This document shows positions 1-6,231 of a DNA stretch of 64,000 nt, in pieces; positions within the stretch are counted from its first letter, which is position 1; the number at the start of each line of letters is the position of its first letter. Under the pieces are notes generated by a model. It had not been told where the DNA came from, made no database searches, and was given only the letters and a program-made list of their open reading frames with translations. Origin of the DNA: a virus. Lineage: Duplodnaviria; Caudoviricetes. The DNA lies in the IMG/VR virus record IMGVR_UViG_3300049988_000286, positions 96,001-160,000 of that record; one strand, 5' to 3'. The position numbers were made by a program, and so were the translations under genes.

Positions 1-909
1 CCCGGCAAGGCGGTCGCCGATGATATCACCCTCGTTCTGATGAACGTCGATCGCAAGACCGCGATGCGGCGCTGGAACATCTGGCGTGCAGAGAACCAAG
101 ACCTAAACGGTTACCGGGTGATCGTCACGCCGGGTCAGGAGGACGAATATCTCGAACGCGTCGGCGACATCGCGCACGTGCTACTCTCGGATACCCCCTT
201 GCCCACCCGCAAGGCGAAGATGCGCCTTCTCGGGGAGGAGCCTCGCTCCGTGCGCGACCGTCCCGAGCAGACCATCGATCTCAATACCGGCGGGTATTAT
301 CTTGTCACCCGCAATCTGCGGGTCATCCATCCCAGCATCGAAGATGAACACCTCAACGATGCCGACCTCGCCGGTTTGCAGCAGCGGCTACTCAAGAGCG
401 ATATCCCGGATGCAGACAAGATCGTCCTCGTGCCATGGTCGCGGCGACGGGAACTCGGCGACGGCTGGACCGATGCCGCGACGGTGATCGGTGCCGACTA
501 TGAGAAGCAGAAAGGAAGCGCGGCGTTCGCCGACATGTTGGAAGCAGCGCGGACATACCGGGCCTTCACAGCGGCGATGTTCAATCAGGGGGTTTGTTTC
601 ACCAGCCTCGCCCGTATCGCCCGCCATTGCGACGATGGCCCGGTGAGCGCCTTCGTGGCGGAGCGTGAGCGGTGTCGCAACGCCAGTGTCGAGGGAGCAC
701 CGTGGGAGATCGTTCAGCGAGTCTTCGATACCAACGCCACACAGGACATGGGTGAACGGCTTTCGCTGCAATGGGGCGAGCTATGCCGTCAGTTCCCGAT
801 GTTGATTGATTTGGTCAAACACCGGCATCGCTACGAGACAGTTGGAAATATTGTCGCCGAAGACGCCGCCCTGTATGTTAACGCGAAGCAAAAAGTATTG
901 ACTGTATAA
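1..909 (+). CDS. C-terminal part of probable rIIA-like protein (5' end outside window)
   Basis: Frame is open from position 1; lies directly upstream of an rIIB-like gene. Identity inferred from synteny only. Confidence 0.45.
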   Translation, partial: PGKAVADDITLVLMNVDRKTAMRRWNIWRAENQDLNGYRVIVTPGQEDEYLERVGDIAHVLLSDTPLPTRKAKMRLLGEEPRSVRDRPEQTIDLNTGGYYLVTRNLRVIHPSIEDEHLNDADLAGLQQRLLKSDIPDADKIVLVPWSRRRELGDGWTDAATVIGADYEKQKGSAAFADMLEAARTYRAFTAAMFNQGVCFTSLARIARHCDDGPVSAFVAERERCRNASVEGAPWEIVQRVFDTNATQDMGERLSLQWGELCRQFPMLIDLVKHRHRYETVGNIVAEDAALYVNAKQKVLTV

Positions 910-922
910 AAGGACTCTATCC

Positions 923-2137
923 ATGGTACCATTTTCAGGGATGATCACCCACGATGGGACGATCACCTTCACCCATAGCGACGGACGCATTCACAGCGTC
1001 TTGACTACTCACTCGCAGTACGGGCGTGTCAAGGATTTGCTCCGCTCGATGGCGGGCCAGCCCGATGACTCACCGATCCGCGACCAGTTGCTCGAACTCG
1101 CCCAGCCCGCGCGGCTGATCACGCGATCGACGCGTGGCCTCGTCACGGTCGAGAACAACCAAGTCCTTTATCGAGGTGTGCCGGTCCGCAACGTCGTGGC
1201 GGAACGCATCCTTTGGATGATCGGCGACGGCTTCGACGCTGCCCCCATGCTGGCCTTCTTGGAGAACGTGAAGGAGAACAGCAGCAACCGGGCGGTGGAG
1301 GAACTCTACCGCTTCATGGAAGCCGCGAAGATGGGGATTACCCGCGACGGTATGATCCTCGCCTATAAGCGCATTCGTGGCGACTACCGAGACATCTACA
1401 CCGGCGAGATGGACAACAGCGTCGGGGTCACCGTCGAAATGCCCCGCAACGAGGTCAACGACAATCCGAACGAGACATGCTCGAACGGGCTGCATGTCTG
1501 CTCGATGTCCTACCTGCCCCACTACGGCGCGGGGCCGGGCAACCGTGTGGTGATCTGCCGCATCCATCCCCGCGATGTTGTTTCGGTGCCGATCGATTAC
1601 GCGAACGCGAAGATGCGCGTGTGCCGCTACACGGTCATCGAGGAAGTGACCGACCAGATGCAGGACGTGCTGGCCTCGAAGCCGGTGTTCGAGCATGAGG
1701 AAGACGCAGACGAGGCGCAGTGGTCATGGGGCGACGATGACGAGGAACTCACCGAGATCGAGATTGATGACACGGATGAGATCGATGGGATCGCCGAGTT
1801 CTTCGGAGACGATGAAGAGCTTGAAGAGGCTGAAGAGCTTGAACAGGTTCTAGAGGTTGACAATAGCGCAGCCCCCACGGAGGTAAAAACGCCGATCCTC
1901 GACTTCACCGCCTTGGTAGCGCGAGTGACCCAAGTTGTTCTAGATTGTGCGAAGGATCAGCTAAAGGTCGAGCGCATCGATCCCAACCATGTGCTGCTCG
2001 ATCTCGGCGCTGACGATCTCGATGTAATCGAATTGGTCATGCTGGTAGAAGACGTGCTTAATGTCGAACTCGGCGATGAATGGGATGCCGACAAGACTGC
2101 CAATCACATCATCGACGCGGTATTGCAGCAGATGTAA
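923..2137 (+). CDS. rIIB: rIIB-like protein with acidic linker and C-terminal acyl-carrier-protein-like domain
   Basis: rIIB-type motifs FLENVKENSSNRAVEELYRF, ILAYKRIRGDY, VEMPRNEVNDNPNETCSNGLH; C-terminal DLGADDLDVIELVM resembles ACP. Confidence 0.8.
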   Translation: MVPFSGMITHDGTITFTHSDGRIHSVLTTHSQYGRVKDLLRSMAGQPDDSPIRDQLLELAQPARLITRSTRGLVTVENNQVLYRGVPVRNVVAERILWMIGDGFDAAPMLAFLENVKENSSNRAVEELYRFMEAAKMGITRDGMILAYKRIRGDYRDIYTGEMDNSVGVTVEMPRNEVNDNPNETCSNGLHVCSMSYLPHYGAGPGNRVVICRIHPRDVVSVPIDYANAKMRVCRYTVIEEVTDQMQDVLASKPVFEHEEDADEAQWSWGDDDEELTEIEIDDTDEIDGIAEFFGDDEELEEAEELEQVLEVDNSAAPTEVKTPILDFTALVARVTQVVLDCAKDQLKVERIDPNHVLLDLGADDLDVIELVMLVEDVLNVELGDEWDADKTANHIIDAVLQQM

Positions 2138-2143
2138 TGGGAC

Positions 2144-2171
2144 GGGGGAGCGGACGGCCCGCTCCCCCTTT
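2144..2171. terminator. GC-rich hairpin between convergent genes
   Basis: GGGGGAGCGG/CCGCTCCCCC 10-bp stem followed by TTT, between rIIB and cca. Confidence 0.7.
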
Positions 2172-3303
2172 ACACACCAAGCATGTCGGTTTTGCCCAGT
2201 GTGTAATCCGATTCGATCCAGCGGCGGCGCGCATCCTTCATCCAGCGGCCGATCTCGACACCGGTGATGCCGCGCTCGATCAGTTCATTGCCCGAGACCG
2301 GGAAAGCAGGTGCCTCCCACGTCTCGATAAAGCGTCGGGTCAGGTCATCACCCCGCGTGGCGAGCAGCGCCGTGATGATCTCCACCGGGATACCTTCTAC
2401 GATATCGCGCTTCGCATCTCCGATCCCATATGGGGTCAAGAGTTTACCGACGATGAACGCGGCGGTCTTCTGCTCGACTTTGCTCCACTTCCACCGCTGA
2501 CCCAGCGCGAGCACCTCCTCACCACCATAGACAGCCATCAGCGCGGCGGGATTGCGTGAAGTCAGCCGAGCCTTGTCGAGAGCCGAGATGTCACCCTCCG
2601 GTAGACCAATCACGCGGCCCACGCCCGAGATGTGGATGAGTTTCAGCACCCTGTCAGCGTTCGGTCCCGCGATGATCTTCGAAATCTCCGCCCAGACACG
2701 CTCGACGCTGATCTGACGCAGATTGGGAGCCGCACGGGTGATCGCCCGCATCGCATCATAATCATTCAGGGGATCACCGAAGCGACCGTAGAAGCGGAAC
2801 CAGCGCAGCGCGCGAAGGTAATCCTCCGCGAGTCGCTCATCGGCATCGCCGACAAAGCGCACCCGTCCCGCTTCTACATCCGCGACACCACCGTGGGGAT
2901 CGAACATCGTGCCATCGAGCGCCATCGCGATGGCGTTCATGGTCAGGTCACGACGCCGCAGATCGTCACGCAGATCAAGGGTGTACTCGACGGTTGCGTG
3001 CCGACCATCGGTCTCGCGATCGATACGGTAGGTAGTGATCTCGTAGGGGATGCGATCGATCACGACAGTGATGGTGCCGTGGGCGAGCCCCGTCGCAACA
3101 TAGTTGTAGCCATGCTGCTCGTAGAGGGCGATCTGCTGATCCGGCGTCGCCGATGTGGTGAGATCGATGTCCTTGGGCGTGATGCCCAGAATGGAATCAC
3201 GTACGCAACCCCCGACAAGCCAAAGCTCGTATCCGGCTTCGACAAACCGCGCGTGCAGTTCATCAATTTCGGGCGGGAGGTTGAGAATATTGCGGTGGCT
3301 CAT
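2170..3303 (-). CDS. cca: CCA-adding tRNA nucleotidyltransferase / poly(A) polymerase family
   Basis: VGGCVRD, DIDL, EITTYR, DLRRRDLTMNAIA, RFVGDADERLAEDYLRALRWFRF class II NTase motifs. Confidence 0.92.
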   Translation of the reverse strand: MSHRNILNLPPEIDELHARFVEAGYELWLVGGCVRDSILGITPKDIDLTTSATPDQQIALYEQHGYNYVATGLAHGTITVVIDRIPYEITTYRIDRETDGRHATVEYTLDLRDDLRRRDLTMNAIAMALDGTMFDPHGGVADVEAGRVRFVGDADERLAEDYLRALRWFRFYGRFGDPLNDYDAMRAITRAAPNLRQISVERVWAEISKIIAGPNADRVLKLIHISGVGRVIGLPEGDISALDKARLTSRNPAALMAVYGGEEVLALGQRWKWSKVEQKTAAFIVGKLLTPYGIGDAKRDIVEGIPVEIITALLATRGDDLTRRFIETWEAPAFPVSGNELIERGITGVEIGRWMKDARRRWIESDYTLGKTDMLGV

Positions 3304-3347
3304 ACGGGTCTCTTACAGTCAAGCATCGAACTTGTCTAGAGATTTTT

Positions 3348-3962
3348 ATGCCCAAGAAGAAGACCCTCGCCTTCGATCGTAAAACTCGCCGTGCCCTCAA
3401 GGCATTCGTGCGCCCCCGCGCGCAAGATTGTGCGGATGAAAAGCCAATGCCAACCAAGACGAAGAAGCGTGTAAATTTCGGTAAGACAACCGCCGGAGCC
3501 AATTCAGCTACCAGCTATGAGCAAATCCTCTTGCCGCGTATCACCACGGACATCCTCGTCCACCCCTATGATACCCAGACCTTCGGGCACATGCACCTTA
3601 CGGTCTTCGCGCATCTATTCCCAAAGATCGACTACATTTTTGTGACGCGGCGCACAAAGGAGATCAGCAATGGCTATGAGGAGTCCTTGCAGCAGCTTGG
3701 CTTCTTCTCCGCGCGCGACTACGACACTTTCACGGATTGGCTAGAGGGATATCTGAAGAAATTCGGCCCGTGTACCGGTCATGCCTACCCGCCACCGATT
3801 GACGGTCACTACCCCTTCCATGCTCCGAGCAAGCCGCACAAGAGCTACGAGGAAGAGTGGCTGTGGATCATCGACAATTGCGCCGGTGAGGTCCGTCACG
3901 GTTCGAACCTCTGGCTGTTCGCCGACGAGGACGATGCTTGCCTATTCGAGTTGTGGAAGTGA
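3348..3962 (+). CDS. hypothetical protein with C-terminal W...F..EDDA..F.L domain
   Basis: 204-aa ORF ending WLFADEDDACLFELWK, the motif of the expanded small-protein family. Confidence 0.7.
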   Translation: MPKKKTLAFDRKTRRALKAFVRPRAQDCADEKPMPTKTKKRVNFGKTTAGANSATSYEQILLPRITTDILVHPYDTQTFGHMHLTVFAHLFPKIDYIFVTRRTKEISNGYEESLQQLGFFSARDYDTFTDWLEGYLKKFGPCTGHAYPPPIDGHYPFHAPSKPHKSYEEEWLWIIDNCAGEVRHGSNLWLFADEDDACLFELWK

Positions 3963-4453
3963 AGCCGGGGCTAGGGGCAGGTAGACGATCCTGCACGATG
4001 CTCATCGGACCGCCCGCGAGTGGAAAATCGACTTGGCGTGCGCGCGATACTACCAACGCAATCGTGATTAGTGGCGACGACATGATTGAGGAAGAGTGTC
4101 GGCGAACAGGGCTCACCTATGCGGAGGTCTTCCCCACGGTGTGCTTCAAGACACAGAAGCGTGCCCTGCATGAGCATTTCCAAGATGCGATCTTCAATCA
4201 CCGCAACATCATCATTGACCGTACCAATCTGACGATCAAGTCTCGGCGAAGCTTTCTCGCTTCGCTGCCACGCAGCTATGAGCGTATCGCGATTGTGTTC
4301 ACTGTCACGCCCTCGGTGTTGTTTGAACGATTGGAGCGACGCGGACAAGAGACTGGCAAGATCATCCCGCGCGAGGTAGTCGAGGACATGATGGCTCGAC
4401 TACAACCCCCAACGCGGGATGAGTTCGACACTATTGTAGAACTGAAAGACTAA
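3938..4453 (+). CDS. P-loop kinase (AAA_33 / polynucleotide-kinase-like)
   Basis: GPPASGKST Walker A, IIIDRTN, terminal PPTRDEFD. Confidence 0.8.
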   Translation: MPIRVVEVKPGLGAGRRSCTMLIGPPASGKSTWRARDTTNAIVISGDDMIEEECRRTGLTYAEVFPTVCFKTQKRALHEHFQDAIFNHRNIIIDRTNLTIKSRRSFLASLPRSYERIAIVFTVTPSVLFERLERRGQETGKIIPREVVEDMMARLQPPTRDEFDTIVELKD

Positions 4454-4599
4454 CGCCCTCGGTTAAGTGGCGATCTGTTCCTTCAACGCTAGCTTCTTCT
4501 TCTTGAGGGTTCGGATAAGCATCTCATCAGGCATGGGTCGCATCTCCTCTGCGCGAATTTCTTCATCGATCTTCGCGTGGCGATCGGCGAGGCTCGACT

Positions 4600-6231
4600 G
4601 TGATGCCATTGGTTGTCATCCCTTCCATGTCAGACCCGGTGTGGGCGAGATCGGGATATCTCGCCCACCCAGTGATGCAAAGATGCCTTGCATCATTTCC
4701 GAACTCTGCTATGTCGATGGTGTCATATCAGGGGTTCGCGATGTACTACGGTATCAAAATCGATTCAACGATCTACGTCACCGCCGCGACCGATCTGGCG
4801 GTCTTCCAAGAGATCGAGATCGATATCACCGATGGTGTGATCCGGGCCGAGCCCTGCGACATGGTGGAGATGTTCACGGAGCCGCTCCTCAAGGACTTCA
4901 CCCTCGCGCCCTTCGTCATCGAGTGCGCCACCGGCACGGTGGCTGATGCGGTCGCGTCGTCGAAAATGATCGCGATTCAATCACCGAGCGAAGCCCGCAA
5001 TACGCAGGACCACATGATGGAACTCGCGCGCCTCAAGGCCGAGTTCGATCAGCCCAAGGATCGCCGCACGCTCGCCGAAATCCATGGCTTCGACGACAAC
5101 GCGGACTGGGACAAACGCTCGGATGCCGAGAAGGAGGCGAGCCGCAAGCAGGACGAGAAGATGCGCGAGGTTCGTGCGGCGGGCGGTCTCACCAGCGGCA
5201 GCTTCGAGAGCACCGATACCGAGAACCTGAAAATCCACGGTGTCTCCACGGTTATCGATGCCGACAAGAACATCGTCTCGGCGTCGGTGAATGCGAGCAA
5301 GAACACCATGTCGCTCTATCGCCTGACCGTCGAGGGCGATGCCGTCGATTTCAACGCGATCTTCGACGACATCGGTCTGCCCGAGAATCGCGTCAAGGAA
5401 CAGGAAGCCAACCACGCGGTGATCAAGCTGCATGATCACCAGATCGAGCGGCTGACCGAGACGCTGGAACGCTTCCGGATGGTCTTCACGATTAACAAGG
5501 TCGGGGAAGGCGAGGAGGAGAGCGACGAGGGTGATCTCATCACCGGTCACGAGAACGTCAATGTCTTCTGGTCGGTTCAGATCGATCACCAGACCGTCTC
5601 CAAGGTGTCGCCGATCCTTCTCGCGGCCGGGCTGGATCAGAACCTCGTGGTGCTGATGCGCAATGCGGGACCGGGCTGCTGGTACGCTTTTCTGCGCGAG
5701 AGCGATGCCAAGGACGCCGCCGGGGCGCTCAAGGACGCCGGGATCGCGTCCGAGATCATTGCCGTCAACCGGCGTGGACAATCGATTTTCTCCGGCACTG
5801 GTGCGGGTGCGCGGATCGTCGATCGCCACGTCGAGGATGTCGTGGAGCCGCGTCCGTGGAACGATCGCGCCCATGAGATCGACGCGATGACCGACGAGCA
5901 GAAGGCGGAGTTGATGAAGGGGGTGAAGACCTCGGAGTTCATCGTCACCGTCGAGAGCACGCCGCGCTACAAGGCGCTGGTGCGCGTCCAGCCGGAAAGC
6001 TATTTCCGCGCGCATGATGCCTTGTGGGAGGCTCCCCTCCATATCGACAAGATGGTGGCGGAGCATGTCCTCAAGCCGATCGAGGGGGCGATCAACGCCT
6101 ATTCGTGCTCGGCTTTCGACGCCCAGTTGCTCAAGGACAATCTGATGCGCTGGGGGTTCATCGACTCGCTGTTGCTCCGGATGCACTTCAACGACCTTGA
6201 GTCGGAGATGAAGGCGGAGTTGTACTCCTGA
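4600..6231 (+). CDS. hypothetical protein (543 aa)
   Basis: Long ORF with strong GC3 codon bias; no recognised motif. Confidence 0.7.
   Translation: MMPLVVIPSMSDPVWARSGYLAHPVMQRCLASFPNSAMSMVSYQGFAMYYGIKIDSTIYVTAATDLAVFQEIEIDITDGVIRAEPCDMVEMFTEPLLKDFTLAPFVIECATGTVADAVASSKMIAIQSPSEARNTQDHMMELARLKAEFDQPKDRRTLAEIHGFDDNADWDKRSDAEKEASRKQDEKMREVRAAGGLTSGSFESTDTENLKIHGVSTVIDADKNIVSASVNASKNTMSLYRLTVEGDAVDFNAIFDDIGLPENRVKEQEANHAVIKLHDHQIERLTETLERFRMVFTINKVGEGEEESDEGDLITGHENVNVFWSVQIDHQTVSKVSPILLAAGLDQNLVVLMRNAGPGCWYAFLRESDAKDAAGALKDAGIASEIIAVNRRGQSIFSGTGAGARIVDRHVEDVVEPRPWNDRAHEIDAMTDEQKAELMKGVKTSEFIVTVESTPRYKALVRVQPESYFRAHDALWEAPLHIDKMVAEHVLKPIEGAINAYSCSAFDAQLLKDNLMRWGFIDSLLLRMHFNDLESEMKAELYS

Follow-up and report, generated by a model that had tools for sequence, protein, structure and literature searches.

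A huge-phage rIIB protein with a serine-less acyl-carrier-protein-like domain at its C-terminus

Introduction

Bacterial acyl carrier proteins (ACPs) contain the motif DLGADSLD, in which the serine carries 4'-phosphopantetheine. To our knowledge, the phosphopantetheinyl transferases known so far act on a serine at the N-terminus of helix II. Phages also encode homologues in which this residue is replaced; the 'acyl carrier protein' AER70228 of PhiSH19, a Salmonella phage of the Ackermannviridae, belongs to phrog_4154 and reads DLGGDDLD. An ACP may be kept for protein binding when it is not acylated, as described for the mitochondrial ACP (mACP) of Plasmodium falciparum, which lacks the phosphopantetheine group and binds Isd11-Nfs1 (Falekun et al., bioRxiv 10.1101/2021.04.13.439690).

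In molecular genetics, few genes have a longer history than rIIA and rIIB of phages. In T-even phages the two lie in one operon, and rIIB together with rIIA acts against RexAB and triggers a bacterial gasdermin/CARD defence, by a mechanism that is described as unclear (bioRxiv 10.1101/2023.05.28.542683). The rIIB protein has been regarded as possibly a transcription factor, and rIIA has been described as a GHKL ATPase whose C-terminal domain varies greatly (PMC7824862).

Here we describe a gene in which an rIIB core and an ACP-like domain are joined. It is located in a stretch of 64,000 nucleotides (the window) that belongs to a single IMG/VR virus record of 499,572 bp, rated complete by CheckV and with a G+C content of 57%. 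The fusion protein resembles T4-type rIIB (PF26926, phrog_609) in its homologous core and in having rIIA directly upstream; unlike T4-type rIIB, it continues after the core with an acidic linker of 80 residues and an ACP-like domain, referred to below as the tail. The tail shares with the bacterial type II ACPs (AcpP/AcpA, PF00550) a homologous sequence, the four-helix fold and the acidic motif of helices II and III, whereas it carries Asp in place of their serine and stands behind an rIIB core rather than alone. The PhiSH19 protein is likewise an ACP homologue with Asp at the serine position (41% identity to the tail over 56 residues); however, it is a separate protein of 110 aa encoded ~76 kb from rIIA/rIIB, while the tail is covalently joined to rIIB. 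Serine-less ACP look-alikes therefore occur in isolated phages, and the new element is the fusion to rIIB. Literature searches for a link between rIIB and ACP found nothing relevant.

Results

Layout of the fusion gene

The gene encodes a product of 404 aa that consists of a core, a linker and a C-terminal domain (Table 1). This three-part division was set by the pLDDT values of the full-length AF2 model. The database gene call begins at Met7 and gives a protein of 398 aa. The ATG at 923 is probably the better start, since the six residues before Met7 are conserved; the N-terminal MVPFSGMI is kept in the aligned homologues.

Table 1. Features of the rIIA-rIIB region, in coordinates of the window
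Feature	Position	Strand	Evidence or remark
rIIA, 3' part (last 302 of 663 residues)	1..909	+	phrog_612 RIIA; ORF traced in genome
Shine-Dalgarno-like AAGGA	910..914	+	8 nt before the ATG at 923; direct reading
Complete rIIB–ACP-like fusion gene	923..2137	+	Single open frame, 404 codons + TAA
rIIB core, residues 1-245	923..1657	+	phrog_609, PF26926; AF2 pLDDT 70-94
Linker, acidic and disordered, residues 246-325	1658..1897	+	pLDDT <50
Serine-free ACP-fold domain, residues 326-404	1898..2134	+	PF00550; AF2 pLDDT >90
DLGADDLD motif, residues 360-367, start of helix II	2000..2023	+	Read from sequence and alignment
Hairpin, 10-bp, G+C-rich, followed by UUU	2144..2168	.	MFE -24 kcal/mol, z -2.9
tRNA nucleotidyltransferase / poly(A) polymerase family gene	2170..3303	-	PF01743 E 3.7e-31, PF12627; convergent
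204-aa ORF	3348-3962		No family match
AAA_33 kinase-like gene	3938-4453		
DUF465 gene	4463-4609	-	

Profile searches matched residues 7-249 to five PHROG rIIB families, the best of which was phrog_609 (E 4.9e-71), and PF26926 (Phage_T4_rIIB) is the precomputed Pfam family of the protein. The gene directly upstream is rIIA, with a match to phrog_612 RIIA over its residues 1-318 (E 1.9e-118). Since the profile match and the adjacency to rIIA were both found, the protein is classed by sequence and gene order as a member of the rIIB family. Its core is 39-47% identical to the rIIB proteins of isolated phages. The linker that follows is highly acidic, with 31 D/E against 1 K/R in the 70 residues from 256 to 325. 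The frame had been read in the first-pass annotation as an rIIB core, a D/E-rich linker and an ACP-like C-terminal domain, and each of these parts was recovered. The motif DLGADDLD is encoded by gat ctc ggc gct gac gat ctc gat, in agreement with the codons given there.

A weak Foldseek match linked the rIIB core of the full-length model to rifampin ADP-ribosyltransferase (probability 0.41, TM 0.33). The Foldseek and VIA-align lists for this model were filled by the ACP domain, with rifampin ADP-ribosyltransferase as the only row for the core, and a likeness at TM 0.33 is too weak to interpret.

Genomic setting

Genome position 94918, which lies 1,083 nt ahead of the window, marks the start of rIIA (locus L002:4918-6909). 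Relatives carry a gene of 644-745 aa at the rIIA place, also directly upstream of rIIB. The rIIA profiles cover residues 1-318 only; the C-terminal 345 residues gave no family match in Pfam or PHROG, and nothing beyond the near clade of huge phages could be aligned with them.

Downstream of the fusion gene, a hairpin lies between the convergent genes for rIIB and the CCA-type enzyme and is probably a two-way terminator. It was not listed by a simple terminator scan because just three T follow the stem. The gene of the tRNA nucleotidyltransferase family occupies the same position in relatives, and the whole neighbourhood at 2170-4609 is conserved and common to them.

Profile searches of the phage genome detected no homologue of ACPS, AMP-binding, ketoacyl-synthase or RelA/SpoT proteins, no phosphopantetheinyl transferase, and no second PP-binding domain besides the tail. 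As the phage genome holds none of these ACP enzymes, any partner of the ACP type would be the host's.

The tail is an ACP homologue without the serine

Residues 338-386 of the tail matched the Pfam PP-binding family PF00550 with 29 bits in the whole protein and 31.8 bits when the domain was searched alone, against a gathering cut-off of 20.8 bits. The E-value was 1.7e-7 in Pfam, and the PHROG ACP matches were phrog_4154 (E 6.4e-8, the best) and phrog_5934 (E 8.4e-7). Compared by sequence with solved ACPs, the tail matched the B. subtilis ACP (E 4e-6), and its identity to solved bacterial ACPs was 26-37%. The AF2 model of the tail, built from an alignment of 32 rows, is a four-helix bundle with a pLDDT of 91.9. 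The best 50 Foldseek rows obtained with this model were all ACP or PCP chains (TM 0.6-0.8), and all 50 rows listed by VIA-align, which is independent of Foldseek, were carrier proteins as well (Z up to 12.2). The pI of 4.05 is acidic, as in ACPs. The obtained results showed that the tail is a true ACP-homologous domain with the ACP fold, and both the PF00550 search and the structure prediction that had been suggested as checks in the first-pass annotation thus turned out in its favour.

The residue aligned with the serine of DSLD in 20 ordinary ACPs is Asp365, encoded by GAT at 2015-2017, and the translation of the domain (residues 326-404) contains no serine. Because of this Asp and the absence of any other serine in the domain, attachment of 4'-phosphopantetheine in the usual way is ruled out on the translated sequence. 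The tail is therefore not a canonical carrier, as the annotation had argued from the exchange of Ser for Asp. Around this position, the tail keeps the acidic helix II/III motif D-x-L-D...E-L-V-M..E-D, with the docking face almost intact. The helix II/III region of the window copy, DLGADDLDVIELVMLVEDVLNVELGDE, is close to the ACP consensus DLGADSLDxVELVMxxEDxFxIEIxDE.

Asp365 is genuine and the tail is constrained

Raw reads with a serine at this position had been named as a refutation in the first-pass annotation, and none was found. The read depth over the gene in the probable source run, a leaf metagenome, was 47x with zero variants. Contigs from two other studies (one of them a phyllosphere metagenome of 2018) are 96-99% identical over the tail and have codon 365 unchanged as GAT. 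Since the depth is free of variants and GAT is kept in the contigs of other studies, the fusion and Asp365 are genuine and are not due to a read error. A protein fragment from a library of 1.8 billion proteins (P0122) is 95% identical and has the same motif.

The same contigs allowed us to compare the tail domain with its relatives, and the changes comprised 10 synonymous and 1 non-synonymous (E386A). This ratio points to purifying selection on the tail. The linker, compared with its relative in run X2, had 5 non-synonymous and 1 synonymous changes and one in-frame insertion of 3 nt, and by this count it evolves fast.

Distribution of the fusion

Searches among isolated phages were negative throughout. 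No phage in the isolate collection matched at least 80% of the fusion protein, tblastn with the tail found nothing in that collection at an E-value up to 0.01, and megablast with the first 8 kb of the window found no match to isolate phages. In IMG/VR, a search with the single fusion protein found no close relative, and none of the best 80 rIIB loci had an ACP-like domain in or beside rIIB. A word-index search with the tail region returned the window's own protein only, and one with the tail alignment at longer lengths gave no new rIIB fusions.

The survey of rIIB homologues for the fusion, which had also been suggested, succeeded in a set of 5.8 billion proteins. Among the best 120 homologues, a small group carries an ACP-like tail, and others carry KTSC or HTH domains. 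The same architecture was present in at least seven independent assemblies. The motif is DLNADELD in P0004, TLGADELD in P0005 and SLGFSEDQ in P0003, each with Glu at the serine position; it is DLQGDDLD in P0006, DLGLDDLD in P0007 and DLGADDLD in P0047, each with Asp. P0033 retains the serine (NLGADSLD). The serine position is thus D/E in 7/8 recognisable rIIB tails, which is to say in all those that lack Ser. The tails of P0008, P0009, P0010, P0011 and P0013 are degenerate but can still be aligned; four of them (P0008, P0009, P0010 and P0013) retain the domain with a decayed DxLD motif. At the alignment position of Glu370, which is the Glu of helix II, P0003 has Tyr, P0004 Lys, P0005 Cys and P0006 Lys.

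Synteny with the window was seen in the genomes of P0003, P0005, P0006, P0009 and P0033. Their common gene order is ClpP, small ORFs, rIIA, rIIB, the CCA-type enzyme and the AAA_33 kinase, and in all the syntenic loci except that of P0033 the kinase is followed by DUF465. In a maximum-likelihood tree of 68 rIIB cores, the tailed proteins fall in one clade of 14 with support of 98/95, with P0033 basal. P0014 and P0038 are placed inside this clade without a recognisable ACP-like tail. P0047 is located in the other half of the tree, beside P0046 and P0054, both of which are without an ACP-like domain. An AU test with 15 rows, the group having been named after the tree was inspected, rejected the joining of P0047 to the main clade (p 1.8e-4). 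An earlier test with 13 rows, containing the tailed proteins only, was set aside as non-specific, given that P0014 and P0038 nest in the clade.

As far as these sequences reach, the fusion is rare and not unique: it occurs in one syntenic clade of huge phages and in a second, unrelated rIIB lineage. The placement of P0047 indicates that the ACP-like domain joined rIIB at least two times, or else moved between rIIB genes, and both lineages carry Asp.

The C-terminal part of rIIB is variable beyond this group. Behind the rIIB core there is usually an acidic stretch, after which come highly diverse tails, including CxxC zinc-ribbon-like domains, G/Y-rich repeats, KTSC and HTH domains (IMG/VR loci L003-L082; P0012-P0121). 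The pattern suggests that rIIB is a conserved core with swappable C-terminal modules. In P0009, P0010 and P0033, an extra small module with a consensus of roughly QF..NG.W..L.GH.C.....E...YV separates the acidic linker from the ACP-derived domain.

Serine-less relatives outside rIIB

An exhaustive search with the tail returned mostly ordinary ACPs with DSLD. It also returned small, free-standing proteins without the serine, namely P0137 (LGMDDLD), P0154 (LGADDLD) and P0146 (LGLDELD). P0137 is encoded among small phage-like genes and a Dam methylase. A tree of the ACP domains, in which 3/29 branches were starred, does not tell whether the rIIB tails derive from phage ACP genes. The grouping of P0047, P0154 and PhiSH19 in this tree was discarded as a join of long branches.

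Discussion

The tail as a proposed docking module

A carrier-dead ACP linked to rIIB suggests a class of partners that can be tested, the proteins that recognise ACP. The reading that we favour is that the tail binds a host protein which normally recognises ACP, its own carrier function being gone, and we rate its chance as falling just short of even. About 80 disordered, highly acidic residues tether the rIIB core to a small carrier-dead domain of the ACP fold, and this domain would work as a docking module through the acidic face of helices II and III, by which ACPs engage their clients. The tail could then bring the rIIA/rIIB machinery to an ACP-recognising host protein, or it could sequester such a protein.

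The lost serine is always D/E in the recognisable tails and in three free-standing look-alikes. This pattern agrees with two roles of the acidic residue: it may cap helix II, Asp being well suited as an N-cap, and it may imitate the negative charge of the phosphodiester in holo-ACP. The recurrence of D/E in the independent free-standing proteins P0137, P0154, P0146 and PhiSH19 is in favour of docking. Further points in its favour are the purifying selection on the tail, the partner of host type implied by a genome without ACP enzymes, and the joining of an ACP-like domain to rIIB at least twice. The Plasmodium mACP resembles the proposed role of the tail, as it is a non-acylatable ACP kept for protein binding; however, it is a eukaryotic organellar protein with another function and is not fused, and it is a precedent for the principle only.

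Several observations stand against docking. The identity of 26-37% to solved ACPs is ordinary and lower than expected of a host mimic. Many unrelated tails occur on rIIB homologues, zinc ribbons, G/Y-rich repeats and HTH domains among them, and the ACP fold may be one of several interchangeable rIIB modules. Across the clade, generic mimicry of the ACP docking helix cannot, judging from the alignment, be the common function, because sister tails that keep the domain have lost the motif or carry another residue at the position of Glu370. The first-pass annotation had proposed a decoy or adaptor for ACP partners such as SpoT, lipid/LPS enzymes, ACP-dependent toxins or defence proteins, tied to the rII anti-exclusion function. 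It is supported in part: the serine-less ACP domain fused to rIIB is real, and these candidate clients and the tie to anti-exclusion are hypothetical.

Alternative explanations

Instead, the tail may be an internal module of the rII system with a structural or regulatory role: it would dock on rIIA or on the rIIB core, perhaps acting as an acidic assembly or autoinhibitory domain, and would be unrelated to the host clients of ACP. We regard this as the strongest alternative to host docking, though on balance an unlikely one. The position of rIIA directly upstream of the fusion gene agrees with it, and detectable similarity between the C-terminal halves of rIIA is confined to phages with an ACP-derived rIIB tail. 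However, this similarity tracks the overall divergence, so the co-variation is confounded. That tails persist without the ACP docking residues would be expected of a partner co-evolving inside the phage; against this, P0014 and P0038 have lost the tail inside the clade, and P0014 keeps a syntenic gene at the rIIA position. The free-standing serine-less look-alikes, which show the same acidic substitution far from rII, are left unexplained by an internal module. A predicted complex of the tail with full-length rIIA scored 0.00 in a run without controls and counts neither way.

It is improbable that the tail is a functionless, decaying relic of a serine-bearing carrier domain of the kind still present in P0033. 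The basal position of P0033, which keeps NLGADSLD, would fit such a history, and so would the other members, in which the motif decays progressively or the tail is gone. The window copy, on the other hand, shows a strong excess of synonymous over non-synonymous changes in the domain (10 to 1) beside a fast-evolving linker, and its fold is predicted with high confidence. The serine was also replaced always by D/E and not by random residues, including the Asp in the independent second fusion of P0047.

It is very improbable that the tail continues to act as a carrier through modification of a different residue or through non-canonical chemistry; the intact fold and nothing else speaks for it, while the domain has no serine and the phage genome no phosphopantetheinyl transferase. 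That the fusion or the Asp is an artefact of assembly or sequencing, through two joined genes or a miscalled codon, can be practically discounted given the variant-free depth, the frame (with in-frame linker indels) and GAT kept in independent contigs, and the recurrence of the architecture across assemblies.

Phage ACP look-alikes and the rII system

The value of the fusion lies in the lead that it offers to a partner class for the rII proteins and in the context that it gives to mis-annotated phage 'ACPs'. Many large phages have genes annotated as 'acyl carrier protein' whose products are unable to carry acyl groups, and the fusion provides them with a functional context. The database name is misleading for such proteins; the relative P0004, for example, was so named by JGI.

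A wider 'Rosetta stone' reading is conceivable because Asp-bearing ACP domains were fused to rIIB in two independent cases. According to it, the serine-less phage look-alikes (phrog_4154 of the Ackermannviridae and the P0137 type) would be partners of the rII system that mimic holo-ACP and aim rIIA/rIIB at an ACP-dependent membrane or defence component of the host. We consider this extension doubtful. If true, it would provide the first molecular lead to the cellular contacts of the rII proteins.

The closest serine-bearing relatives of the tail (P0123, P0125, P0128, P0139 and P0151) have a C-terminal ACP fused to an uncharacterised N-terminal domain (loci L092 and L093). P0123, P0125 and P0128 share the same N-terminal domain and are 40-43% identical to the tail. 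Proteins of the P0123/P0125 type may represent a phage-borne ACP family, and the contigs of P0123 and P0125 are full of small, unannotated phage-like genes.
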